A DNA stretch of 64,000 nt, taken from IMG/VR virus record IMGVR_UViG_3300034102_002416; one strand, given 5' to 3'. Below, in pieces: positions 5,569 to 26,597 of this stretch. Source of the DNA: a virus. The translations under genes were made by a program, and so were the position numbers. The stretch's first letter is position 1. Every line of letters begins with the position of its first letter. A model generated the notes under the pieces. It was not told the DNA's origin, made no database searches, and saw only the letters and a list, made by a program, of their open reading frames with translations.

Positions 5569-5814
5569 CTATTTTGTTAAATCCAAAGAACATCCAATAA
5601 CATTTATTTTTGGAGTATGTGTATGTTGTTGTTCTGTTAAATAGATATCAATTAAATCTTTAGTCTTATTTAAATCTTCGGTAAATGATCCTTTGTAACG
5701 ACAACGTACGATTCGTTTAATAATATCAAATTCATAGCTATTAAGTTCCCAATCTTCTGCGAATTTATACAGGCTATCTTTACCTCGGTAATGTGATTGC
5801 GTGTTTACACTCAT
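5569..5814 (-). CDS. DUF3310/T7 gp1.7-like protein
   Basis: HY...IIKRIVRCRYKG..EDLNK pattern. Confidence 0.6.
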   Translation of the reverse strand: MSVNTQSHYRGKDSLYKFAEDWELNSYEFDIIKRIVRCRYKGSFTEDLNKTKDLIDIYLTEQQHTHTPKINVIGCSLDLTK

Positions 5815-6263
5815 TTTCTAACTCCTTTCATCATGTTTTTTACTTCTTTCTCCGAATATCCATATAAATTTAGCAGACGAGTGCAACTAGTTTGATCCAT
5901 CAAATCCACGTAATCAGTTGCTTCAGAACGACTTACTTTGTAGTGCTCTGCAACTTGAGAGATTAGTTTATCGGAAAATTTATCTTCTTTTTTACCTTTA
6001 ATGTATTTAGCAAATGCCTTGTTATGCGGTAATAGTTCGTAATAAAGACGATATGTTTCTTGTGGCCGTAATAACCCTATTGTGTATGTCTGTAACTCAT
6101 TAATAACCTCAACTAAATCTTGTCGCATAGAAAGCCAACGATTAACAATATATGGAGAAAATGCCTTTTGATCAGTTTCACTCCATTTATTCCATGCTTT
6201 CTTTTTGCTTGTTACGCCTTCGATAAAATCAAAGATAGTTGCACCCTTTTTTTCTTCTGCCAT
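5811..6263 (-). CDS. clamp loader small subunit (gp62-like)
   Basis: FSPYIVNRWLSM and KYIKGKK motifs; lies near the gp44-like gene. Confidence 0.7.
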   Translation of the reverse strand: MAEEKKGATIFDFIEGVTSKKKAWNKWSETDQKAFSPYIVNRWLSMRQDLVEVINELQTYTIGLLRPQETYRLYYELLPHNKAFAKYIKGKKEDKFSDKLISQVAEHYKVSRSEATDYVDLMDQTSCTRLLNLYGYSEKEVKNMMKGVRK

Positions 6264-6476: not shown

Positions 6477-6694
6477 TATTTTTTCAGTTTAATGGGTTGA
6501 AACACTTCTGGAATAGACCCGCAATCATCACATCGAAACACAGGAACCGGAACCATTGTATCTTTATCCCCACCTGTTAGAAATTTTGATACTTTGTTAA
6601 TTGCCATTACTTGACGAAAATACATTCCATCACATTCTTTGCATTGAATTGGCTGCATATCGTTTGGGCCAATATTAACATTTAATTTACTCAT
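6476..6694 (-). CDS. small zinc-ribbon protein
   Basis: CKEC...CDDC; likely start MSKLNV at 6694 overlapping the upstream stop (ATGA). Confidence 0.65.
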   Translation of the reverse strand: MSKLNVNIGPNDMQPIQCKECDGMYFRQVMAINKVSKFLTGGDKDTMVPVPVFRCDDCGSIPEVFQPIKLKK

Positions 6695-7617
6695 ATTTCT
6701 CCTAATATATTTACAAACATGGACATTATGTTGATTTCTTTGTCTACAACAGATGCATCTTTGTATTGAGCTTCTGCAATAATTAAAATGCATGGAGCTA
6801 CATGTCCATGAGCGAATTCATCTAAATTGTCATATAGAAATGTGTATAGTGCCGTAAAATCTCTTACTTTGCTATCTGCAATAATTTGACGTATTTTAGT
6901 GAATGCACCTTTCTTGTCTGCAGAATTGCGTAATACATCTAATATTTCTGTCATGTAATTTGCTTGTATAGCACTTGCTTTATCTAGTTGCAATGTGTTA
7001 TTAACAACTGATGCTTGTGCTGCATTAATTGCACGACGAATATCTGGATATGATGCATTAATTATTGCAGCAACATCTTTAATATCAAACTCAATTTGCT
7101 TTTCTTCTAATACTTGCACAAGCCGCTTTGCTACATCTGTTTTATTCGGAGGAGTAATTGCAAATGTTTGACAACGAGATTGTATTGGATCAATAATCTT
7201 TTCTACATAATTACATGTAAGAATAAAACGGGTTGTTTTACTATATGTTTCCATTAAATTACGTAATGCTGCTTGAGCATTTGGTGTCAAATAATCAGCC
7301 TCATCCAATATAATGATTTTCCATCGTCGAAATCCTACTGTCGATGCATAACGTTTAATCTTATCCCGTACAGCATCTACTGAGTTTTCATCGGATGCAT
7401 TTATATACATAACATCGGCATCCACACTACCGGCAATGATTTTTGCCAACGTGGTCTTCCCAGTACCCGCGGTACCATAGAATAATAAGTGAGGAACATC
7501 ACCATTATTAATAAAGATGCGTACTTTTTCAATGATATGTTCATTACCTATATATCCTTCTAATGTGTCGGGACGAAATGATTCGACCCAAAGTGTATTT
7601 TCTTGTGTATTAAACAT
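6691..7617 (-). CDS. clamp loader AAA+ subunit (gp44/RFC small subunit-like)
   Basis: LWVESFRP, Walker A GTAGTGKTT, LDEAD and SRC motifs. Confidence 0.95.
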   Translation of the reverse strand: MFNTQENTLWVESFRPDTLEGYIGNEHIIEKVRIFINNGDVPHLLFYGTAGTGKTTLAKIIAGSVDADVMYINASDENSVDAVRDKIKRYASTVGFRRWKIIILDEADYLTPNAQAALRNLMETYSKTTRFILTCNYVEKIIDPIQSRCQTFAITPPNKTDVAKRLVQVLEEKQIEFDIKDVAAIINASYPDIRRAINAAQASVVNNTLQLDKASAIQANYMTEILDVLRNSADKKGAFTKIRQIIADSKVRDFTALYTFLYDNLDEFAHGHVAPCILIIAEAQYKDASVVDKEINIMSMFVNILGEI

Positions 7618-7624
7618 AATATAA

Positions 7625-8053
7625 TTATTTTCCTCCGGTAGAACCGAATCCTTTTTCTCCTCGTTTAGTTCCAGTTAATCCAGCTACCGGTAACCATTGT
7701 ATCTGTTCTACTTTGCATAAAACCATTTGTGCTATTCGGTCGCCTGGATTGAATATAATAGAGTGCGGACCATGATTAATCAAAATAACTTTTATTTCTC
7801 CCCGATAATCTGAATCAATCGTGCCCGGTGAATTTAACACAGTAATTCCATGTTTTAGTGCCAATCCACTTCTTGGTCTTATTTGCAATTCATAACCTTG
7901 CGGAACTTCTACAAATAATCCAGTTTCAACTAAACATCTGCCGCCTGAGTCAATTGCGACTTCATTAATACATCGGATATCTAAACCAGCACTACCCGGA
8001 GTTTCGTATGCAGGTAGTGCATTATTTGACTGATTTACTACAGATACTATCAT
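7625..8053 (-). CDS. dut: trimeric dUTPase
   Basis: AGLD, RPRSGLA, GTIDSDYRGE, RIAQ and RGEKGFGSTG motifs. Confidence 0.97.
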   Translation of the reverse strand: MIVSVVNQSNNALPAYETPGSAGLDIRCINEVAIDSGGRCLVETGLFVEVPQGYELQIRPRSGLALKHGITVLNSPGTIDSDYRGEIKVILINHGPHSIIFNPGDRIAQMVLCKVEQIQWLPVAGLTGTKRGEKGFGSTGGK

Positions 8054-8055
8054 AA

Positions 8056-8766
8056 TTAATTTTGCAATTGTACTAACCAATAAGATGATTCAAAATCAGT
8101 TCCGGTAAAATCAATTCTTGCTAATCCTTCTGGTGAAATATGAAGTTTACCAGAATCACCTTTATTTGCGATAAGAATTTCTTTTAATTTATCTGCTGAA
8201 AAACAGATAGGTTCCATATTAGTAATATTAGTAGGACCAACTTCAAATGAAATGTTATCTGCATTAATAGTGGTATAGTTAATAATAAATTTTATACTAC
8301 CATTTACAACTTGTACTGCAAAATTCTTAGCATCTGGCAATGCATTTTTTGCTTTAATAAATTTACTAATAAATTCATCATCAACATCGATTGAAACCTG
8401 ATAATCTGGTTCTGCATTAATTGTTGGTACTGCTGGAATTACAGTGGTATCTGCTAACATGAAGGTTAACTTTGTGGTACCTTCTGAAATTTTCATTGCA
8501 TAGTTTTTACCTGCAGATTCTTGCACGTCAATATTAATTTTTTCTCCTACGGCACTAAGCATTTTTGTCAATGCACCGGTATGATTAATACCTAACGATC
8601 CATTCATAAATGGTGTAGTTTTCCATTGAATTTTACCTACTACGGTTTGATCTTGATCGATTAGATTACAACCTACACCGGTAGAATTTTCATTAAGAAT
8701 AACCGCTTCACAATTTCCTGCTAAATAGTAGCGATTAATAAATGATTGTAATTTACTTTTTTCCAT
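8056..8766 (-). CDS. sliding clamp (gp45/PCNA-like)
   Basis: 236 aa, two-domain alpha/beta pattern, upstream of clamp-loader genes; assigned by size and synteny. Confidence 0.65.
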   Translation of the reverse strand: MEKSKLQSFINRYYLAGNCEAVILNENSTGVGCNLIDQDQTVVGKIQWKTTPFMNGSLGINHTGALTKMLSAVGEKINIDVQESAGKNYAMKISEGTTKLTFMLADTTVIPAVPTINAEPDYQVSIDVDDEFISKFIKAKNALPDAKNFAVQVVNGSIKFIINYTTINADNISFEVGPTNITNMEPICFSADKLKEILIANKGDSGKLHISPEGLARIDFTGTDFESSYWLVQLQN

Positions 8767-8775
8767 GTTTACCTT

Positions 8776-10026
8776 TTAAAATTTAAAGAATTCTGCGAAC
8801 TTATTTGCATCGGTAGTTGATATAGAATCCCCTCCGAATTTTTTATATGTTTTTTTGTATTTTGCATATACATGCATTGCATTTTCTGGATCTGCAAACA
8901 TATCATGTAATGATAATATCACATTAAACAAATCCGTTGGAATAGCTGTTTCTAACAATTCAACATGACTATCAACCATTTTGTCAATATCCTTTGCAAT
9001 ATTCACATACAAATGTGTATTATGCACAACCATTCTTGGCATACCTTCTTGTGAATATCGATCCAATCCATCTGTAGTCAGCCCGCCTAAATATTCATAC
9101 GTAAAATCTTTACATGCTGGACAATCCATACTACACGGTACATGTTTTGTCTTATCGATATCTACCGAATCTTTACCTTGCTTAATATGTGTCTTTCTAC
9201 GATATTCAGCATTCTTAGGGAAATACAATTCTGTAAATGTCTGTGTCTTATAATTACCTGAGTGAAGATATGTTCCATATACTGGATACTGACCCGGTGA
9301 CGATGAATCTGTCGATAATTGCACACGACCATTAGTTAAGTCATTAAGTAACTTTTGTAATGTGGATAGAATAAAGAAATCTGATATTTTTGAAATACCT
9401 AACAAGTGAATATATTGAACATGAGGCTTTTCAAATTCTCTTTCTTGCAACATTAATGCAATAACATACATAAAATCAACTAATCGCTTTGGACCTCCAA
9501 TACACCATCCGTTAAAGTCAAAGTCTTTAAATTTATGATACCATGTGTTATATTCTTCGTTATATGTACCCTGAATTACATTTAAGAATTTTGTCTTGCC
9601 TGATTGATGTTTTTCAAACCATTTAAAGTTATCAAAAGAAATATCCATCGAATCTTGAAAACGATTTTCAAATGTAACTCGAGGTGGAATATCTAAGTTA
9701 GCTGCTACATCGCTGTTAGCTTCTAACCAATGAAATATTTTTTCTCGAAGTGTGCTATCCCATTTCAATGCACCAGTAGCAATCTGGAATCCTCCTGAAT
9801 CTCCAAATACTAATACATCATCATCTAGACCAATCTGTTGACGAAAATCCATTTTCTTGTAATGGTGACCTGCTGTAATCAAAAAATATGGATGCCTCCA
9901 TTCTTCTGGATAATCTTTCCCGAAAAATCGCATAGTGGTACCATCTTCAAACTTAGCATCCTTTTTGAATGCTGATACCATTGATCCTGCTGATAATGAA
10001 GGATAGTAAATAAACTTTTTACTCAT
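8776..10026 (-). CDS. dpdA: DNA 7-deazaguanine transglycosylase (TGT fold, DpdA)
   Basis: DSGGFQ, LDIPP, HLLG, DSSS, Zn site CSMDCPAC...HN; folE/queD/queE in the same region. Confidence 0.85.
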   Translation of the reverse strand: MSKKFIYYPSLSAGSMVSAFKKDAKFEDGTTMRFFGKDYPEEWRHPYFLITAGHHYKKMDFRQQIGLDDDVLVFGDSGGFQIATGALKWDSTLREKIFHWLEANSDVAANLDIPPRVTFENRFQDSMDISFDNFKWFEKHQSGKTKFLNVIQGTYNEEYNTWYHKFKDFDFNGWCIGGPKRLVDFMYVIALMLQEREFEKPHVQYIHLLGISKISDFFILSTLQKLLNDLTNGRVQLSTDSSSPGQYPVYGTYLHSGNYKTQTFTELYFPKNAEYRRKTHIKQGKDSVDIDKTKHVPCSMDCPACKDFTYEYLGGLTTDGLDRYSQEGMPRMVVHNTHLYVNIAKDIDKMVDSHVELLETAIPTDLFNVILSLHDMFADPENAMHVYAKYKKTYKKFGGDSISTTDANKFAEFFKF

Positions 10027-11186
10027 TATTTTCCTTGTATTAAATGTTTACAATATGCTGTTTCATGCCATATATTATGTTCTTGAGTTATATCATTAAC
10101 CATAATATAAGCTTCTAACTGCCGACCTAAGTCAGAAATATCAACTATATTGTAATGTGTTCTTTGTGTTTCAATTGTATGCTGTAATAATCGTAATGCA
10201 CTCGTAACATCAAATGCTTTGTATAAACGATCATAATCTATAAATTCAGGGAAAGATCTGAAATTAGGATATACAATATCAGCACCAAATGCCGTTGCTT
10301 CAATAACTGTCCAAGACACGTAATCTTGTAATGCTGAATTGAACTGAATTTTACATGTAGCTAATTCAGTGTAATATTCTTCTTTTGACAATCCACTTAA
10401 CAATTTAAAACGAGGTTGACGTTTAGCTAATGCTTTCATTGCATCAATTACATCAGGAAGCATCGATCTAAATTCTTTACCAGATGTAGTTACATGCCAT
10501 TCCCATATAGTATGTTGTTCTAAAAACTGTTCTGCAACATCTAACATGAAAAACGGATTCTTTTCTTTGTCTAAACGAGATGAATATACTACTACATTTT
10601 TCTTTCGTTCAGATATATTTGGTAATTTTGCTAATGTAGCTTGTTTATGAATTGGTAATGAAACTACATGAATTGGTGCAGTGAATCCAGCTGCTCGAAG
10701 TTGTTCTCTATGAATAGTGCTACCGACAAAGATGCCAGACATTCGTTTATCTAATCCTAATTCATAATTACGCATCCACTTTGCCATTGGATATGTAAAA
10801 TCATATTCATCAACAGATTGTGCATGAAGCATTGCATACACTTTAACTTCAATGCCATATAAATCCAATGCATACCAAATTGCATCTAAACCAGGAGTCC
10901 AATAATCTTGCAAAAAGATAATATCTCCAGATTTAACTTCATCATTATAAATTCGTTGAAGAAAATTTTGACATTGTGTCAAACTAAATTTACCTCTACC
11001 AATAGCATCTAATACTGCACCAACTTTAATTTGCTGATCAGGATCAAATTCGCCTTCAATATCTATAAAGTTTAATTTTCCAGCTTTTACATATGGTTCG
11101 AATGTGGCTGGCATCCATTCTTTTGAAAGCTGATATGTGTATCGAGCTTTAAGTGGTTCTAAACCGAAATAAAATAAATTCCTCAT
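10026..11186 (-). CDS. GT-B fold glycosyltransferase coupled to dpdA
   Basis: SRLDKEKNP and ALQDYVSWTVIEA GT-B C-domain motifs; its stop overlaps the dpdA start. Confidence 0.75.
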   Translation of the reverse strand: MRNLFYFGLEPLKARYTYQLSKEWMPATFEPYVKAGKLNFIDIEGEFDPDQQIKVGAVLDAIGRGKFSLTQCQNFLQRIYNDEVKSGDIIFLQDYWTPGLDAIWYALDLYGIEVKVYAMLHAQSVDEYDFTYPMAKWMRNYELGLDKRMSGIFVGSTIHREQLRAAGFTAPIHVVSLPIHKQATLAKLPNISERKKNVVVYSSRLDKEKNPFFMLDVAEQFLEQHTIWEWHVTTSGKEFRSMLPDVIDAMKALAKRQPRFKLLSGLSKEEYYTELATCKIQFNSALQDYVSWTVIEATAFGADIVYPNFRSFPEFIDYDRLYKAFDVTSALRLLQHTIETQRTHYNIVDISDLGRQLEAYIMVNDITQEHNIWHETAYCKHLIQGK

Positions 11187-11190
11187 TATA

Positions 11191-11224
11191 ACTTATAATA
11201 ATAAATTTTTTAAAACTATCCAAG
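11191..11224 (-). promoter_or_regulatory. host-type (Bacteroidota-like) promoter TTG(G)-N16-20-TAnn(A/T)T (representative copy)
   Basis: Coding strand CTTGGATAGTTTTAAAAAATTTATTATTATAAG. Similar elements near 4928-4960, 12411-12442, 16241-16268, 18841-18874, 22951-22980, 26041-26071, 30011-30044, 41146-41177 and 56411-56442. Confidence 0.55.
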
Positions 11225-11578
11225 TTAATCACGCTCAATTATAGCGCCGTTTTCCCAATCTTCCCAAACTTCTACTTTGTATAGTTCTGGAAATTGATCT
11301 AATAACCATTCGCCAATTGCTTCACATGACATTGGTCCGAATTCTAACACATTGGCAAAGCCTTTTTCGAAGCTCAATTGTAATGTTCTTTTTATTTCAC
11401 GATTCAATAAAATAAATTCTTTGTCGCGATCTGTATGTGTTACTGTTGCATAACAACGAAACCCGAACATATGACGATGTCTATCTGATAAAAATGCTAC
11501 TGGTGGAAATATGTCTTTTGCTGCAGGCCAACAATGAAACCCTTCCATACTAAATGTTACTACTACGCTGTACTTCAT
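11225..11578 (-). CDS. dpdL: QueD-paralog T-fold protein, probable CDG decarboxylase DpdL
   Basis: LSDRHRHMF fits the LxxxHRHxF signature I recall for DpdL; also SCE and EDWENG; a canonical queD is present separately. Confidence 0.65.
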   Translation of the reverse strand: MKYSVVVTFSMEGFHCWPAAKDIFPPVAFLSDRHRHMFGFRCYATVTHTDRDKEFILLNREIKRTLQLSFEKGFANVLEFGPMSCEAIGEWLLDQFPELYKVEVWEDWENGAIIERD

Positions 11579-11966
11579 CTGCTATTTGTTTTTTAAATTT
11601 AGTGGTTGACCATCCATGGTCTCTGTTTATGTAATGAATATCGATACCTAATTCCTTACCAGTAAAATCTTTTCCAATATAATCATCGCCTAAAAACCGT
11701 ACATCTGGATCGATTCCTTTAAGGAATTCATATAGTATTTCTTCGGTAGAATATGCTATAACTTCATCAATCATTTCTAATGAATACAACATTTCTTTTC
11801 GGTCATCTAAAGATAATATTGGTTTCATTTTCTCTGGGCGTTCTAAACTAGGATCTTCATGTAATAATACTATTAACCAAGTACAATGTTTTTTACATTC
11901 TTTAAACATTTTAATGTAACCTGGATGCATTACATCAAAATTACCTGCTATAACTCCTAATTTCAT
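11550..11966 (-). CDS. TagD-like cytidylyltransferase
   Basis: GNFDVMHPGY (HxGH variant), LGDDY and RDHGWSTT motifs. Confidence 0.8.
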   Translation of the reverse strand: MKLGVIAGNFDVMHPGYIKMFKECKKHCTWLIVLLHEDPSLERPEKMKPILSLDDRKEMLYSLEMIDEVIAYSTEEILYEFLKGIDPDVRFLGDDYIGKDFTGKELGIDIHYINRDHGWSTTKFKKQIADEVQRSSNI

Positions 11967-12400
11967 AGTTCTTCATCAAATTTATAGTTATCAGGCTGAA
12001 TTTCCATCATATTGCACTTAGTAATCTGGTGCACACGATACCAACCAGCATCAATACTCAATGTATCGGTGTCTTTTAGCAGTTGTACTGCATCATCTTG
12101 TATACGATAAATAATGTGGCATCGATTAACAAGATCCACAGGAATGTTCTTTAAAGTGTCTTTAGCAGCTTCAATGGTTATAGCACAATTAGTTGTATCT
12201 AAAATATGCCGGATAATTGAAAGATATTGTGCATTATCTTCAATTTGTCGCATATATTCTATAGTAAAATAATAATGTGGATATTCTGTATATGATTTTA
12301 CTTCTAGTTTATTGTTAACTAACTCTCTAACAAAGAATGTCATAATATCCGAATACCGACCTTCTACTTCGCGGCCGCGCCATTGCTTTTTTCCGTACAT
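11963..12400 (-). CDS. hypothetical protein, first gene of the modification operon
   Basis: ATGA overlap with the cytidylyltransferase; TTTGG promoter upstream. Confidence 0.65.
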   Translation of the reverse strand: MYGKKQWRGREVEGRYSDIMTFFVRELVNNKLEVKSYTEYPHYYFTIEYMRQIEDNAQYLSIIRHILDTTNCAITIEAAKDTLKNIPVDLVNRCHIIYRIQDDAVQLLKDTDTLSIDAGWYRVHQITKCNMMEIQPDNYKFDEEL

Positions 12401-12448
12401 ATTTTTCTTTTATTATATGTAATAATATTAAAATAACCAAATGTTTTA

Positions 12449-12481
12449 ACAGTAAAAAAGTGCAACGTTTAAATTGCACTT
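12449..12481 (-). terminator. intrinsic terminator
   Basis: Stem AGTGCAA/TTGCACT followed by TTTTTACTGT. Confidence 0.75.
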
Positions 12482-12493
12482 AAAATATTTAGT

Positions 12494-12880
12494 TTAACTT
12501 AACGGAGTAGAATCGTCTTCATTTTCTGGATCTACATACAATCCTAATTGTCGACCTAATGCTTTCATAATTTCAATTCCAGTTGCATCATCTATAGTAG
12601 AATCTATCGATTTCATATATTTAAGAATTTCATCTGGATCTGTATCTTTTATAATCATGCTTTGTATGTTTAATACCATACGAGCTTGTTCTCGCTCTTT
12701 TGCACTTTTTCCAGAAAATACTTTTGCATATGTTGCAACTGCAGCTGCCAAAAGTCCTCCAGCTCCTATTGCCATTTTAGAAGCTGGAAATAAAATCCCA
12801 GGATGTTCTTCATTTAAATTTTTAGTTTTAAACCGACGCATATTTTCTGCTAGCAAATCTGTTAGTTTAATATTTGACAT
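12494..12880 (-). CDS. leader-tagged hypothetical protein with hydrophobic segment
   Basis: MSNIKLTDLLAENMRRFKTKNLNEE leader, then AIGAGGLLAAAVATYA. Confidence 0.7.
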   Translation of the reverse strand: MSNIKLTDLLAENMRRFKTKNLNEEHPGILFPASKMAIGAGGLLAAAVATYAKVFSGKSAKEREQARMVLNIQSMIIKDTDPDEILKYMKSIDSTIDDATGIEIMKALGRQLGLYVDPENEDDSTPLS

Positions 12881-12928
12881 TAGTATCCTTTAACATAATT
12901 TTAATATAAATATATGCAAAAAAAAAAA

Positions 12929-15439
12929 TCATTTACCAAAGCTAAAAAACTTTGCCGCATTATTATTTTCTGGCAATACGCCCCACGTCATTGCTGCATA
13001 GAAATCATCTAGTTTGCCTTTTAATTCGCGTTCAAACTGCTTGTTACGATCAATGTACATTGCAACAAAATCTACAATCTCCGTAGGATCCTGGTAACCT
13101 TTAAGTGCCATGGTATCAAATCCATATGGATTATTTCGAAGATATGCCCATTTCACTTTATCACCATCTTTGATAGAAACTACATCAGTTGTTAATGTTG
13201 TTAACATGTCATTGTAATTAATTGCTGATTTAACATGAGCTGGCGAACCAGATAAATATCCACTAAAAGGTTTACGTTTCTTAGTATATTTAGATATTTC
13301 TTTAACACCTGAATTCTTCATTACACTTGTTAATTCTGCATTATTCAATGAATCTTTGAATTTTAAAATCATTTCAGATGTAGCTTGTTTGCTGTTTTGT
13401 TTCAAAATATACCATAATGTTTCTTTCATTATAGTTTTAAACTCATCTGGGAATGATGATCTAACTACATCTAATCCTTTAATATCCATTTTGTTAGTAG
13501 GTTTACCTTCTTTAAAGATAACCCACTGTGCATATCTTTTCTTAGCAATCCATAAACCAGATTTTGCAACATATTCTTGTTTAATTGTGAACCGATGCGA
13601 ATCTGTATTTAAAAATACTTTTGCATACTGGTTGTACATTGTGTTTACTTTAAGTTGTACTTCAGATGCAATTTCATTGGTTTTTTCAATCATGAATTGT
13701 TCGTCTGTTTCATCGAATCCAGGATAACGATGCTGTATGAGCGGTAAACTAGAAACAAATGTTGAATCTGTGTCAGTATAAAATGCAAACTCAGCTTGTT
13801 GACCGGATGCATTAATAAAGTTTGAATGTCCAATTTCTTTTTGGTAATGATTATTAATAACTTTTGCTGAAAATTTAATAATACTTTGTCCAGTTGCTGT
13901 AATAGCACCAGCATTATCTAAATCGTGGAATCGAAACGTTTTAAGTCCTAATACTCCATAAAATGAATTAAGCAATACTTTTTGTGTTAACTGCATTGCA
14001 TCATAAAACTTATAATCATCACTACCTACTTCATATTCATCACGCTTATCTTTAAATTCTACCCGCTCATCAAACCATTTTGCTAGAATTGTTGGTAAAA
14101 ATCCTTTTATATCGGTTCGATACACCGTTCCATTGCTAGCAACTGTATATTTATTATCGGTTAACCATTGTTTAACATCTGTAATCGTTTTGTTTCCAAT
14201 TTGTACCGATACCGGATCAGTTTTTAATAAACATGTTTCATCCCAATTAGCAATAACTCCGATCTTTGTTTCTGGAGATATGTTTAAACTCATAATGATA
14301 CTCGGATACAGAGATGTTAAATCCAAGTCATATATCCATTTATACAATCCAGGCACCGGTGCCATTACATATGCACCTGCCAACACATCAGCTGCAGTTT
14401 CTTCTTCAATAAAACGGAATTGTTTATTTGGAGCTACATATCCATTACGTTTTAAATCTACTATAGCAGCACCATCTAGATATTTAGATGCATAATAAAC
14501 ATCTTCATATGGTACATGTCCTTTATGACATATAGTCCGTGCTAAGTTTATGAACTGTAACTTTTCATCTAATTCATAAACCAAATCGGTATCTGTCATG
14601 TTGTAAAAAGCAAACTTGTGAATATCTTGTGTAAAAAGAACATCTAAATCACCTTCATATTCAACTTTACCTCGACCCAATTCTAGTTTTGCAACAGTAT
14701 CTAATCGATAATTTGGTAATTCGCTGTATGTAAAGTTTTTATATAGTTTCAAATAATCTAAACTAGAAACACCAAATATTTTCCATTTTTCCTTTTTTGG
14801 ATTATAATCTACAATTCCAGCCGGACTTAATTTTTTGATGGCATTTACACCTAATACCTTTTTAGCACGACCCAATAAATATGGAATATCATATCCATCA
14901 GTGTTCCATCCTGTAATTACAGTTGGTTGTACAGCCGCAAATATGTTTATAAATCTGGTTAAAAGATCTCTTTCGTCTCGAAATATTTCTAAAACATAAC
15001 CATCGCCTTGTATTTCACGTTCTTTTATGCGATTCAGTTCGTCTAATATAAGTACTCGTCTATCATTACCAATTTTATCATAATATGCAATTGATGTTAT
15101 AGCCGTGCGCGTATCATGTATAGTACTATATCCATTTTCATCTTTTGCTGTTTCAATATCAAAGAAAAAATCGCGATGTCCTTTTGATACTAAATCTGAT
15201 TCATAGTATAAATCTATCAGGGTTCGGACTTCTTCATTTAGATCAGATTCGTATGAAGCAGGATTATCTTTATGATTTCCTGGTATCTGTTTTAATGTAG
15301 TGCCGTCTAATGATACATATGTTCCTGCAGAGTCTGGTAAATATGCATATGGTTTAAATGGAAATTTTTGATGTCCTAATTCATCATCCCACACGTGCAT
15401 AGTACCGGATTTTCTGTCATATGAAATATTTTGATACAT
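12929..15439 (-). CDS. family B DNA polymerase (gp43-like)
   Basis: Exonuclease motif FDIET; polymerase motifs DLTSLYPSII, KVLLNSFYG, YTDTDS and KKRY. Confidence 0.97.
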   Translation of the reverse strand: MYQNISYDRKSGTMHVWDDELGHQKFPFKPYAYLPDSAGTYVSLDGTTLKQIPGNHKDNPASYESDLNEEVRTLIDLYYESDLVSKGHRDFFFDIETAKDENGYSTIHDTRTAITSIAYYDKIGNDRRVLILDELNRIKEREIQGDGYVLEIFRDERDLLTRFINIFAAVQPTVITGWNTDGYDIPYLLGRAKKVLGVNAIKKLSPAGIVDYNPKKEKWKIFGVSSLDYLKLYKNFTYSELPNYRLDTVAKLELGRGKVEYEGDLDVLFTQDIHKFAFYNMTDTDLVYELDEKLQFINLARTICHKGHVPYEDVYYASKYLDGAAIVDLKRNGYVAPNKQFRFIEEETAADVLAGAYVMAPVPGLYKWIYDLDLTSLYPSIIMSLNISPETKIGVIANWDETCLLKTDPVSVQIGNKTITDVKQWLTDNKYTVASNGTVYRTDIKGFLPTILAKWFDERVEFKDKRDEYEVGSDDYKFYDAMQLTQKVLLNSFYGVLGLKTFRFHDLDNAGAITATGQSIIKFSAKVINNHYQKEIGHSNFINASGQQAEFAFYTDTDSTFVSSLPLIQHRYPGFDETDEQFMIEKTNEIASEVQLKVNTMYNQYAKVFLNTDSHRFTIKQEYVAKSGLWIAKKRYAQWVIFKEGKPTNKMDIKGLDVVRSSFPDEFKTIMKETLWYILKQNSKQATSEMILKFKDSLNNAELTSVMKNSGVKEISKYTKKRKPFSGYLSGSPAHVKSAINYNDMLTTLTTDVVSIKDGDKVKWAYLRNNPYGFDTMALKGYQDPTEIVDFVAMYIDRNKQFERELKGKLDDFYAAMTWGVLPENNNAAKFFSFGK

Positions 15440-16290: not shown

Positions 16291-17067
16291 TCAAACTCCC
16301 CTTTTAGTATCATATGCCACGATATGGTCTCTTCCTGTCATGTTATAACCATGGTTAGCACACATTTCAAATACCAACGGATACATTTTAATCAATTCGT
16401 CTCTAGTATCACCAGCAGGCATTATGTACGTTTTATCCTTTGGAATATTATGTTGAATCCTAAACAATTCAATTTCTTGTAGATTCTCTTCAGTACCATC
16501 CCAGACTGGTTTATAGTGATAATCTGCGTGATATGCAATCATTTTATCTATCGCTTCGCTATTGAGACGGAATTTATTATGTTGCTTAACCATCTTTTCA
16601 TCCGTAATCGTCCCTTGCGGTGTAGCAACGCCCACAACGGGTACGCTATTGGCAAACTTAGGACTAATAGAAAGGAGGCCAATAGGGTAATCAGTTTCAA
16701 TATAATGAGAACCTTCAGTTTCAATAGTAATAAGAATATCTCTTTCATGTGCAAAATGTGTCAATTCATTAACTAGTGCTGGATGCATTGTCGGGGATCC
16801 TCCAGTTAACATCATTTCTTTAATATGTGGATTTTCGTCGTAAATTTTAATAATATCATTGAATGTAAAAGTACCTTTTTCTGGATGAATTGAACTGTAC
16901 CAGCTATCGCACCAGCCACCTTCACCAAAATAGCATCGATGAGTGCATCCGGTAGTGCGTACTGCGATTGTTGGTCTACCAAATCGGCTTCCTTCTGATT
17001 GCACACAACGATATAATTCTATGATTGGCAATGTTTTATTGTAGTCTGTTATTCTTCCTGGCTTCAT
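16291..17067 (-). CDS. queE: 7-carboxy-7-deazaguanine synthase (radical SAM)
   Basis: QSEG, GCTHRC...WCDS, TGGSP, ETEG and SISPK; start MKPGR at 17067 with AAGGA SD. Confidence 0.9.
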   Translation of the reverse strand: MKPGRITDYNKTLPIIELYRCVQSEGSRFGRPTIAVRTTGCTHRCYFGEGGWCDSWYSSIHPEKGTFTFNDIIKIYDENPHIKEMMLTGGSPTMHPALVNELTHFAHERDILITIETEGSHYIETDYPIGLLSISPKFANSVPVVGVATPQGTITDEKMVKQHNKFRLNSEAIDKMIAYHADYHYKPVWDGTEENLQEIELFRIQHNIPKDKTYIMPAGDTRDELIKMYPLVFEMCANHGYNMTGRDHIVAYDTKRGV

Positions 17068-17074
17068 AAATTCC

Positions 17075-17446
17075 TTAAAATGGTAGGTCGTCATCGATTG
17101 ACTCAACACTATTGGTAACATTGGTATCTAATTTTTTAATTAATTCATCAAACTTATTTTCTAATGAATATAAACGTTCAAGTAAATAACGCAAATCAGC
17201 CTGTGCTAATTCAGAAGCAAATGTATCACCGGGTGTAGTTTTGCCAAAGTATTCATCTAGAAATGATTTTGGATATGTTGCTACTCGATTATATTCTGGT
17301 CTAGATAAGTCTGGTGGTAGATCTTGATAAATAACATGAATATTTTTTGACTTTGCAGCTTCATACACTTTTTGACCTAGTCCACTTTCTCGAGATGCTT
17401 TACCACTGTAATCATACAGTGACATATATTGATCATTACTCTTCAT
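17075..17446 (-). CDS. hypothetical protein with coiled coil and SSB-like acidic tail
   Basis: Ends ESIDDDLPF. Confidence 0.7.
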   Translation of the reverse strand: MKSNDQYMSLYDYSGKASRESGLGQKVYEAAKSKNIHVIYQDLPPDLSRPEYNRVATYPKSFLDEYFGKTTPGDTFASELAQADLRYLLERLYSLENKFDELIKKLDTNVTNSVESIDDDLPF

Positions 17447-17449
17447 GGT

Positions 17450-17665
17450 TTAGTTATTTGGTTTAACCGTTATTGTATATTTTCTAGTATAACTAGAATC
17501 CTCGTTTTTTACTAACACACCTAGTACTGGTATAAATTCGTTAGGATCAAACATAATTGGTGTAACAACAACACTTAGATTGGAGTTTTCTAAAGCAATT
17601 TTAATTTGTTGAGTTATTGCCATCTCATTAACTTCTACTTTCATTTGGTCTTTATTATTGTTCAT
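17450..17665 (-). CDS. hypothetical protein
   Basis: 71-aa ORF within the que operon. Confidence 0.55.
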   Translation of the reverse strand: MNNNKDQMKVEVNEMAITQQIKIALENSNLSVVVTPIMFDPNEFIPVLGVLVKNEDSSYTRKYTITVKPNN

Positions 17666-18119
17666 AACTTGCTGAATTTCGTTCGTGTTCGTATACTTCT
17701 ATTTTGATAGCTTTTACTCGGCCTTCTGTTTCTTCTTTTAAGAATGCATTTATTACATAATATAAATGTTCTGCAAATTTTTCACATCCAGTAGCTGGTA
17801 AAATTCTTAATTGAATAATACCATCTTCATCCATTTGTTTGAATTTATCTAAATATGGATCATCTAATGCAACGATTGTAGTATGATCTAATAAAAATGT
17901 AAAATAATCTTTTGGAGACATACCTGCAATTTGAGTTTTAGAACGCTTCATACCGCCAAAATCCCATACCCAATTACGATGATCTAATTCTCCTTCAAAC
18001 CATACTCTAAATGATACAGCATATCCATGTAAGAATTTACAATGAGTATCTTCTGCTTTCCATTGACGGAAACAAGTTGAGTAACCATCAAATAATTTTG
18101 TTGAAATGTAACGTGCCAT
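17655..18119 (-). CDS. queD: 6-carboxy-5,6,7,8-tetrahydropterin synthase
   Basis: HCKFLHGY, WDFG, LDH, GCE and EHERNSA. Confidence 0.9.
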   Translation of the reverse strand: MARYISTKLFDGYSTCFRQWKAEDTHCKFLHGYAVSFRVWFEGELDHRNWVWDFGGMKRSKTQIAGMSPKDYFTFLLDHTTIVALDDPYLDKFKQMDEDGIIQLRILPATGCEKFAEHLYYVINAFLKEETEGRVKAIKIEVYEHERNSASYEQ

Positions 18120-18120
18120 A

Positions 18121-18825
18121 TTAATTATTATAACCTTTTACAAATTGATAAAATTCTGATCTTGCGTTGCCATCTTCTAAAAATGCACCAGATAATTTCG
18201 CAGTTTTCATTGAAGCACCACCATGCTTAACTCCTCGACATTGCACACAGTTATGAGTTGCTTCAATCATTACTGCTACACCTTTATTGTTTTCGATAAG
18301 TTCATCAATTGCGTGGTGGATAGCAACAGTTAATTGTTCTTGAATTGCACCTCGTCTGCCAAAGTGCTCAACTACTCGATTCAATTTACTTAAACCAATA
18401 ACGTTGCTATTTTCACCCGGAATATATGCAACGTGAACTAGACCCATAATAGTTTGATGATGATGGCTACACATTGATGTTAATGGAATACCTCCTTCAA
18501 ACACAATGCCATCGTATCCATCACTTGGAAATGCTGTAATATCTGACATTGGTTCATATCGACCGGCCCATAAGTCATTTACATATGCCTTTGCTACTCG
18601 CCGAGGTGTATCAGCCGAGTTTGGATCAGATTCCCATGTTACGCCTAATGCGGTTAAGAATTGACCATAATGATATGCAGCTTTATCGATAATAGCTTGT
18701 TTTTCTTCTGTAGTCAATCTAGCATCTGGACCTTCAATCGATTGTTTTGTTGCTAACTGAATAGAAACTCCATTTGCAAAGCCAGGATGCACTAATTCTA
18801 AATTTGTTCTTTGTTTCGTTGTCAT
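18121..18825 (-). CDS. folE: GTP cyclohydrolase I
   Basis: TPRRVAK, SMCSHH, GLSKLNR, IQEQLT and HNCVQCRG. Confidence 0.96.
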   Translation of the reverse strand: MTTKQRTNLELVHPGFANGVSIQLATKQSIEGPDARLTTEEKQAIIDKAAYHYGQFLTALGVTWESDPNSADTPRRVAKAYVNDLWAGRYEPMSDITAFPSDGYDGIVFEGGIPLTSMCSHHHQTIMGLVHVAYIPGENSNVIGLSKLNRVVEHFGRRGAIQEQLTVAIHHAIDELIENNKGVAVMIEATHNCVQCRGVKHGGASMKTAKLSGAFLEDGNARSEFYQFVKGYNN

Positions 18826-26096: not shown

Positions 26097-26597
26097 TTAA
26101 AATAAATAATCCATAATCGTAGAATCACTTATTCCATATTTTGTAGCAATATCTTCATCCTGTATTTCTACATTTTGAATATCACCATCTTCATCATATG
26201 TAACTGTCAAATCGATAGTATCGGTACCAACTTTAAGTTCACAGTCAAATGTAATGTCGGATACTAATCTGGTTTGATCATATGCACCAGTTGGATCATT
26301 TTTACTTTCAATATCTTGTTTGATGTCGTTCACAATATCTTGAAATGTATTTTTATCATCAATTCCAGATCCTTGAAAATACATAGATGTAATACCAGAA
26401 ATGTTGGTATCATAATCAACTCGGTTAATATGAAGTTTTAAATTCTTAGGATCAAACATTGGATTACCTGTTCGAGGATCTCGATTGGCACCATCGAATC
26501 CTAATTTATTTTCCAAATCACTTAAATCAGCTTCGTGTAGATTTTTTGTATTAAAACGACGCATATTTTCTGCTAGGATGTTTTCTAGTTTTTTCAT
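26097..26597 (-). CDS. leader-tagged acidic hypothetical protein
   Basis: MKKLENILAENMRRFNTKNLHE leader. Confidence 0.7.
   Translation of the reverse strand: MKKLENILAENMRRFNTKNLHEADLSDLENKLGFDGANRDPRTGNPMFDPKNLKLHINRVDYDTNISGITSMYFQGSGIDDKNTFQDIVNDIKQDIESKNDPTGAYDQTRLVSDITFDCELKVGTDTIDLTVTYDEDGDIQNVEIQDEDIATKYGISDSTIMDYLF

Follow-up and report, generated by a model that had tools for sequence, protein, structure and literature searches.

Introduction

In phage T4, the C-terminal tail of the gp43 polymerase (EKASLDFLFG) and the LDFLF loop of the DNA ligase bind a hydrophobic pocket of the sliding clamp gp45, which also counts gp33 and gp55 among its clients, and the polymerase peptide of RB69 binds in the manner of a PCNA-interacting peptide (PIP) box (PMC6212786). 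For the T4 ligase peptide a Kd of 10.7 uM has been measured (PMC6212786). The modification of phage DNA with 7-deazaguanines is held to be a post-replicative base exchange by which some phages replace all G, and phage paralogs of tRNA-guanine transglycosylase (TGT) encoded together with deazaguanine pathways are viewed as DNA transglycosylases (PMC10516641). Docking on the sliding clamp, as we propose here, would offer an answer to how such a transglycosylase keeps up with the replication fork. We analysed a window of 64,000 nucleotides, to which all positions below refer unless otherwise stated, from the IMG/VR record IMGVR_UViG_3300034102_002416, the 159,977-bp and 95% complete genome of an uncultured T4-like phage with a GC content of about 33%. 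In this window, the gene of a candidate DNA transglycosylase of the DpdA kind lies directly upstream of a sliding clamp gene, and its product ends in an aromatic peptide that resembles the tail of the replicative family B polymerase (PolB).

As with the gp45 clients of T4 and RB69, the peptide considered here is short, hydrophobic and aromatic, appears to sit on a flexible segment, is common to the polymerase and another DNA enzyme, and would address a single pocket of a trimeric, two-domain clamp. It differs from theirs in its form, which is h-x-x-F-F-x-F (h, hydrophobic) and thus PIP-like rather than LDFLF, in a clamp that is too diverged to be matched by Pfam or PHROGs, and in its client, which, unlike the gp45 clients described so far, is a base-exchange transglycosylase. 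With the PIP-box clients of PCNA in eukaryotes and archaea, such as FEN1 and ligase, the tail shares an h-x-x-a-a core (a, aromatic) and, if it docks, the use of the clamp as a tool belt that couples DNA maintenance or modification to replication; unlike the PIP box, it has no leading glutamine, carries an extra aromatic two positions past the pair, and belongs to a viral system. DNMT1 and UNG2 are further PIP-box clients of PCNA.

A phage DNA-modifying enzyme has been linked to the replicative clamp before, because T4 alpha-glucosyltransferase (alpha-GT) co-purifies with gp45 (Sommer et al. 2004, cited in PMC6024577), and the pull-down has been repeated (PMC13216743). As has been proposed for alpha-GT, the enzyme studied here would act right after synthesis. 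However, alpha-GT glucosylates a base already incorporated by the polymerase, whereas DpdA would excise G and insert another base. Furthermore, the passages on alpha-GT consulted in these papers describe no terminal motif common to it and gp43, whereas the DpdA of this phage has one in common with its polymerase.

As in the phages that carry DpdA1-4, a TGT-derived enzyme is encoded here with 7-deazaguanine precursor genes (PMC10516641). A pathway that ends at 7-carboxy-7-deazaguanine (CDG), without QueC, has been described for Cellulophaga phage phiST and for Campylobacter phages with DpdA3, the subfamily with complete G replacement, and the phiST dpdA3 gene lies between the CDG genes and the genes for dUTPase and polymerase (PMC10516641). 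The phage of this window resembles both in its CDG-only pathway, and phiST in that its dpdA also lies among CDG, dUTPase and polymerase genes. The main DpdA paper mentions neither a clamp nor a C-terminal motif (PMC10516641); our literature search found no paper linking DpdA to a sliding clamp, and the texts that name both do not connect them.

Results

DpdA ends in a conserved aromatic peptide

The initial annotation of this locus had noted that DpdA and PolB end alike. The translations bear this out: DpdA ends ...STTDANKFAEFFKF and PolB ends ...ENNNAAKFFSFGK, with A-x-F-F-x-F, or more generally h-x-x-F-F-x-F, common to both. Taken alone, such a likeness is unconvincing, because a DegT-type sugar aminotransferase of the same genome also has FFxF near its C-terminus. 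Homologs of the aminotransferase do not keep this sequence; we rejected it as a chance look-alike and used it as a negative control. The DpdA tail, unlike that of DegT, is conserved. Across 79 IMG/VR loci, with DpdA at 84-97% identity, F..[FY]FK[FL] is unchanged, while the residues between and before the aromatics vary (ANKFAE, AHKFNE, AENFNK, AKQFEK, VKQFNK and others), and the PolB tails at the same loci retain [AVM]-x-K-F-F-[SNKT]-F.

The conservation extends to distant homologs. When 1.84 billion cluster representatives, each standing for a separate 50%-identity cluster, were searched exhaustively with HMMER, 791 relatives of DpdA emerged, of which the best 150 were taken; 120 of these are 370 amino acids (aa) or longer. 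A tail was scored as present when the final five residues contained a hydrophobic-[FW] pair or the final eight an aromatic pair. By this criterion 92 of the 120 representatives (77%) carry the tail, compared with 12% of this genome's 191 other genes and 14.6% of shuffled tails. In the distant family, 34-40% of residues at the last three positions are phenylalanine, versus 2-3% at positions -8 to -15, and at positions -6 to -15 polar or charged residues account for 70-80% and aromatic ones for 2-8%. Aligned on the motif, the family gives the consensus [LI]-[ND]-x-[FL]-F-(x-F), a PIP-like h-x-x-a-a core behind an aromatic-free polar stretch, and both the composition and the variability of this segment suggest that it is flexible. 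Conservation of the tail, on which the initial annotation had staked its case, therefore holds among orthologs and distant homologs alike. A tail search across the 160-kb genome found none of this kind on the glycosyltransferase (GT), the dUTPase or the clamp-loader subunits.

The DpdA tail covaries with the PolB tail

Two IMG/VR scans with diverse alignments yielded 108 loci that hold both DpdA and the C-terminal part of PolB, and these fall into 12 single-linkage lineages below 60% DpdA identity. The aromatic motif is present on both proteins in all 12 lineages. L181, L193 and L209 were considered as tail-less DpdA exceptions and rejected as such, since their motif lies about 25 residues in from the end. 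Within lineages the two tails resemble each other closely, up to eight of nine identical residues in L112 (DpdA KKINNLFKF, PolB KKINSLFKF), with further pairs, given as DpdA/PolB, in L171 (IETFFDF/IESFFEF), L091 (GSLFD/DSLFY), L097 (DIDNFF/LIDEFF) and L123 (ITDLWQ/IDDLFG).

Over the 12 lineages, the summed BLOSUM62 similarity of the tails is 238 for own pairs versus 190.8 +/- 13.9 for permuted pairs (p ~0.0015), and the own PolB tail ranks first for the DpdA tail in six of the 12. The result holds without the best lineage, L112 (p 0.018), at tail lengths of 10 (p 0.003) and 16 (p 0.0008), and with seven sub-lineages added (p 5e-5). Covariation of the two tails across related phages, proposed earlier as a check on the idea, is thus found. 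Its conservation and its covariation with the tail of PolB exclude chance as the origin of the DpdA tail, a conclusion for which the single pair of tails in the window would have been insufficient.

The downstream gene encodes a sliding clamp

As a single sequence, the 236-aa product of 8056-8766 has no match in Pfam or PHROGs, its match to the NCBIfam sliding clamp model (E 5.8e-5) falls below the cut-off, and its homologs among the 120 matches listed are all unannotated. A profile of 34 homologs (15-90% identity) was compared with 177,635 PDB sequences. Its top three matches are RB69 gp45 (E 4.5e-4), T4 gp45 (E 8e-4) and an entry of T4 gp45 with the ligase peptide; the gp45 matches (E 4.5e-4 to 8.7e-4) are colinear and agree in length, and PCNA ranks fourth. 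The AlphaFold2 (AF2) model of the monomer from the single sequence had a pLDDT of 37; repeated with the 34-sequence alignment, it reached a pLDDT of 94.6 and a pTM of 0.90, with four helices and two repeated sheet units. Foldseek retrieved only PCNA and gp45 clamps with this model (TM 0.75-0.82, including 3u61_F and 6drt_A), and its best structural matches are PCNA-peptide complexes.

Gene order agrees with this assignment. A megablast search of the region against cultured phages gave no match; the closest isolate, Microcystis phage Mel-JY01, has a PolB-clamp-loader module in the order PolB, clamp homolog, HolB, clamp loader A, with no DpdA at the locus. In the window, gp44-like and gp62-like loader genes lie at most 2.5 kb from the clamp gene. 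Collectively, the profile, the model with its Foldseek matches, and the synteny with Mel-JY01 settle that 8056-8766 encodes a sliding clamp of the gp45/PCNA type, as had been assumed at the outset, which would act as a closed trimeric ring on DNA. The best-conserved stretch of the clamp family, residues 104-120, forms the domain-joining loop of the AF2 model. In PCNA and gp45 the region of this interdomain loop borders the peptide-binding pocket.

The PolB tail aligns with the clamp-binding tail of gp43

PolB is about 30% identical to cyanophage gp43 over nearly its full length (query residues 41-835). Its tail aligns position for position with that of syn9 gp43, which ends SLEFLFG, and occupies the site of the clamp-binding SL[DE]FLFG in T4-type gp43. 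Because the tail is aligned with a gp43-type tail whose partner is gp45, it is by homology a clamp-binding peptide, of which DpdA would carry a copy. Furthermore, dpdA is immediately upstream of the clamp gene in the window, in L098, L112, L171, L173 and in others, and within a few kb of PolB and clamp in other lineages. In L091, L097 and L130, PolB is split into two genes, an N-terminal part of 608-701 aa and a C-terminal part of about 305-313 aa that bears the tail, with intervening DNA in L097 and L130.

Since the clamp is real, the DpdA tail is conserved, the two tails covary and the PolB tail lies at the clamp-binding site of gp43, we consider docking of DpdA on the clamp through its tail the best reading and a probable one. 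The initial annotation had gone further, to a transglycosylase riding the clamp behind the fork that modifies nascent phage DNA nearly completely while sparing host DNA. This interpretation is supported in part: docking is favoured and its consequences, from riding behind the fork to near-complete modification and the sparing of host DNA, are what we infer from it. Near-complete replacement of G and sparing of host DNA by way of clamp docking are, unlike docking itself, not supported.

A candidate DNA transglycosylase with a CDG pathway

The 416-aa product of dpdA matches the Pfam TGT family PF01702 with an E value of 3.3e-7 (30.1 bits versus a cut-off of 26.3) and the NCBIfam model tgt_general (TIGR00449) with an E value of 4e-7, below the cut-off. 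A profile of the DpdA family matches structures of the archaeosine TGT (ArcTGT) and of bacterial TGT (E 1e-6 to 1e-3). The aspartates of DSGGxQ and DSSSP are invariant in 36 and 32 diverse homologs, and a C-x-C-x-x-C...HN site is conserved in the family; we take these to be Asp102 and Asp280 and the zinc site of TGT. A tblastn search of 50,697 phage records retrieved only homologs at 22-35% identity that are unannotated or labelled "TGT domain", and no characterised DpdA1-4 member. From these sequence features the protein is predicted to be a DpdA-like member of the TGT superfamily and a candidate DNA-guanine transglycosylase.

The phage has genes for FolE, QueD and a QueE-like enzyme, and no QueC, QueF or formyltransferase was found in the 95% complete genome, so its pathway halts at CDG. 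Because a GT gene overlaps dpdA, and a cytidylyltransferase-like gene and a QueD paralog accompany the CDG-only pathway, the gene content suggests that the deazaguanine base is further decorated in this phage. A weak GT-like gene just upstream of DpdA is also found in L089 and L096, which are phages with a family A polymerase (PolA). The deazaguanine gene block of the window includes a 123-aa protein (17075-17446, minus strand) with no Pfam match that ends ...SIDDDLPF, like the tip of the bacterial single-stranded DNA-binding protein (SSB).

Alternatives to clamp docking

Several findings weigh against docking on the clamp. The motif is absent from 23% of the distant DpdA representatives. Tail-bearing DpdA occurs in PolA phages whose PolA has no such tail, and a clamp candidate, weakly supported, was seen in just one of five PolA lineages (L094) and none in the other four. 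The DpdA-like homologs of Pseudomonas phage Voja-6 (L227:1357-2727) and Vibrio phage GR11A (L229:1219-2808) have long, basic tails rich in Lys and Arg and no aromatic peptide. The covariation test covers 12 lineages defined by single-linkage clusters, uses a score picked after the data had been seen, and controls the shared ancestry of neighbouring genes just partly. Aromatic tails are not unique to clamp clients, since the gp32-type SSB of this phage (25216-25992, minus strand; Pfam gp32 E 4.5e-13) ends in the aromatic-acidic ...SAFNDLFN. Finally, how far DNA is modified need not depend on clamp binding, because the share of T4 alpha-GT depends on expression: promoter swaps indicate that expression and not gp45 binding sets the dominance of alpha-glucosylation (PMC13216743).

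The tail common to DpdA and PolB could accordingly dock both on another replisome partner, be it gp32, the helicase/primase or, for DpdA, PolB itself. Covariation shows a shared constraint and not the identity of the partner, PolA phages in which no gp45-like clamp was found still have the DpdA tail, and aromatic-acidic tails such as that of gp32 mediate SSB-centred contacts too. Nevertheless, we hold this to be unlikely: by position the PolB tail corresponds to the tail of T4-type gp43, for which the partner seen in structures is gp45 (PMC6212786), dpdA recurs directly upstream of the clamp gene, and in its h-x-x-a-a form the motif matches PIP-like clamp ligands. It is about as unlikely that the tail serves DpdA itself, in oligomerisation, autoinhibition, as a base-flipping wedge or in contact with the GT, its likeness to PolB being a convergence on a sticky aromatic peptide. 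Such a role would suit a tail found family-wide, including in phages with an unrelated polymerase, as well as the conserved, overlapping gene pair of GT and DpdA, and the basic tail that replaces the aromatic one in some homologs suggests a general role in tethering to DNA or to a partner. However, the lineage-specific matching to PolB is unexpected for an internal function, and a motif behind an aromatic-free polar stretch, terminal or about 25 residues inside, is placed as a linear docking motif should be.

The two remaining alternatives concern the enzyme and the signal. Were the protein a tRNA rather than a DNA transglycosylase, a link to the clamp would be irrelevant to DNA modification. 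The evidence for its activity is limited to TGT-superfamily similarity, and tblastn retrieved no characterised DpdA1-4 member; yet the gene sits in a replication module beside clamp and polymerase in a phage with FolE, QueD and QueE, phage TGT paralogs with such pathways are in the published view enzymes of DNA (PMC10516641), and a tRNA enzyme would have little use for a replisome-type tail, all of which makes this very improbable. As to the signal, F-rich C-termini of an AT-rich genome might have been picked by eye, for many proteins had been scanned for the initial annotation and the DegT aminotransferase is a third, unrelated protein with FFxF near its end. We judge an origin by chance refuted, its probability being negligible, by the frequency of the tail (77% versus a background of 12-15%), the invariant aromatics in 79 relatives, the covariation (p 0.0015 to 0.018) and the control tail of DegT, which is not conserved.

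A proposed model for clamp-coupled base exchange

The folded core of DpdA is followed by a short aromatic-free polar stretch and then by the terminal F-x-x-F-F-K-F. If DpdA docks on the clamp, the most likely mechanism is that the peptides of DpdA and PolB both insert into the hydrophobic pocket of the trimeric clamp. The gp44/gp62-type loader would put clamps on phage DNA, and these would bring the transglycosylase to duplex that has just been replicated, there to swap G for a CDG-derived 7-deazaguanine made by the phage FolE, QueD and QueE. Docking would raise the local concentration or the processivity of base exchange on nascent phage DNA, and would affect the completeness of the modification.

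In a more tentative reading, in which such docking ties base exchange to the replisome throughout the transglycosylase family, the clamp, rather than the DNA affinity of the enzyme, would deliver the transglycosylase to nascent DNA, which could explain how post-replicative base swapping replaces every G. Some phage DpdAs are inactive when expressed alone in E. coli (PMC10516641), and dependence on a clamp might, speculatively, be the reason. If DpdA docks on the clamp of this phage, a base-exchange enzyme would join the clamp tool belt as a new class of phage sliding-clamp client, and the heterologous use of such enzymes, for modified DNA or studies of restriction escape, may need the cognate clamp. 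Furthermore, a tail matched to the polymerase tail would be a signature with which other replisome-coupled modification enzymes could be found in uncultured phages.

DpdA homologs in PolA phages and in cultured phages

In PolA phages, the DpdA homologs end ELSLF, KKTLF, KRLF or GLF. ELSLF resembles the bacterial beta-clamp motif QL[SD]LF, and the DpdA with this end in L094, a phage other than that of the window, adjoins a weak beta-clamp candidate and a loader. L094 (IMG/VR 3300032893_000017) is a complete 97-kb PolA phage with terminal repeats, and the genes at L094:9992-15734 are, in order, a radical S-adenosylmethionine (SAM)/SPASM gene, a 338-aa gene, DpdA, a 344-aa beta-clamp-like protein, PolA and an RFC/delta'-like clamp loader; the gene ahead of DpdA is GT-like. 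The 344-aa protein has a weak Pfam match to the beta-clamp N-domain (E 0.07), viral beta-clamp clusters are among its language-model neighbours (0.95-0.97), and a jackhmmer search with it gave no homolog at the remaining PolA loci. A 316-aa gene at the same position in L089 looks DHH-like and was rejected as a clamp candidate. It would be unusual for a family A polymerase to have a clamp and loader of its own, as it may in L094.

If the beta-clamp assignment in L094 holds, the type of DpdA tail would follow the type of clamp, which we regard as a lead. It is a tentative extension of this lead that across a large, mostly uncultured transglycosylase family base exchange is hard-wired to the replisome, with a docking peptide re-tuned to the clamp of each phage (h-x-x-F-F-x-F or SLF for gp45/PCNA-like clamps, ELSLF for beta-like ones).

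The basic tails of the Voja-6 and GR11A homologs may be another way of staying on DNA. Among other cultured phages, the neighbour gene in Phosso was considered as a clamp and is not clamp-like. In PA5oct, a 248-aa "structural protein" (EST35_0314, L226:313-1059) encoded between the DNA polymerase and a DpdA-like gene matches the clamp profile weakly but over its whole length (hhalign E 8e-4, probability 24%) and, on this similarity, may be a mis-annotated clamp. The DpdA-like protein of PA5oct contains an internal SFNSLFD.

Organisation of the locus

The open reading frame (ORF) list together with Pfam and PHROGs matches confirms the order GT, dpdA, clamp, dut, clamp loader given in the initial annotation, all on the minus strand, as are the four small genes between PolB and GT (Table 1). 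Coding is strongly one-sided in this genome, with 201 of 207 simple gene calls on one strand. The GT stop and the dpdA start overlap by 1 nt, and 9 nt separate the dpdA stop from the start of the clamp ORF.

The promoter assigned to 11191-11224 as the head of this unit is a 10/12 match to the sigma-70 consensus (TTTAAA-18-TATAAT, 11214-11185), and such matches are not enriched in the region, with 47 found versus 64.7 expected from shuffles; by this comparison the claim of a promoter and an operon is not statistically supported. Among the terminator-like hairpins of the region, the best lies at 12458-12481 on the minus strand, between the 128-aa and 145-aa ORFs, with a 9-bp stem followed by a T run. 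The tightly packed gene run through dpdA and clamp may therefore begin at this hairpin instead of at 11191-11224. Just past the start of the window (L001:118-6354) there is a sugar-nucleotide cluster with a DegT aminotransferase, GDP-mannose-4,6-dehydratase-like and methyltransferase-like genes, and others.

Table 1. Features of the dpdA-clamp locus and the deazaguanine genes in the window.
Feature	Position	Strand	Evidence
Clamp loader A subunit, gp62-like	5811-6263	-	Pfam Phage_clamp_A E 1.4e-6, above cut-off; phrog_225 E 3e-19
Clamp loader large subunit, gp44/RFC-like AAA+	6691-7617	-	phrog_168 E 9e-84; Pfam AAA, DNA_pol3_delta2
dUTPase	7625-8080	-	Pfam dUTPase E 2e-32
Sliding clamp, gp45/PCNA type, 236 aa	8056-8766	-	Profile, AF2 model, Foldseek
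DpdA C-terminal putative docking peptide F-A-E-F-F-K-F (h-x-x-a-a-x-a)	8779-8799	-	Conservation in relatives
TGT/DpdA-like candidate DNA transglycosylase, 416 aa	8776-10026	-	Pfam TGT PF01702
Glycosyltransferase, GT-B, group 1-like	10026-11186	-	Pfam Glycos_transf_1 E 1e-4, below cut-off
QueD paralog	11225-11578	-	phrog_17812
Cytidylyl/adenylyltransferase-like gene	11550-11966	-	RfaE domain II-like
145-aa unknown among genes ahead of dpdA	within 10026-12400	-	ORF list
PolB C-terminal peptide A-A-K-F-F-S-F-G-K	12932-12958	-	Alignment to syn9 gp43 tail; kept in relatives
PolB, T4 gp43 type, 836 aa	12929-15439	-	Pfam DNA_pol_B E 5e-40 and exonuclease domain; phrog_262 E 5e-171
QueE-like radical SAM enzyme	16291-17121	-	NCBIfam QueE models E 1e-14
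QueD	17655-18119	-	Pfam PTPS E 4e-13
FolE	18121-18825	-	GTP_cyclohydroI E 2e-44

Other proteins with similar tails

Outside the window, a T7 endonuclease I-like resolvase (L005:8081-8563, plus strand, which is G000:C1:48081-48563; Pfam Phage_endo_I E 1e-32) ends ...VRKFFA. Two homologs, 81% and 76% identical to it, have the ends ...IKTFFG and ...VKRFFS, so that the h-x-x-F-F tail is conserved, and from its tail the resolvase may be a third clamp client. Just upstream of gp32, a 166-aa protein of unknown family (26097-26597, minus strand) ends ...TIMDYLF, and the ...TIYDFLF end of a 73%-identical homolog closely resembles the LDFLF clamp motif of T4; by this resemblance the protein could be a gp33-, gp55- or gp59-like factor.

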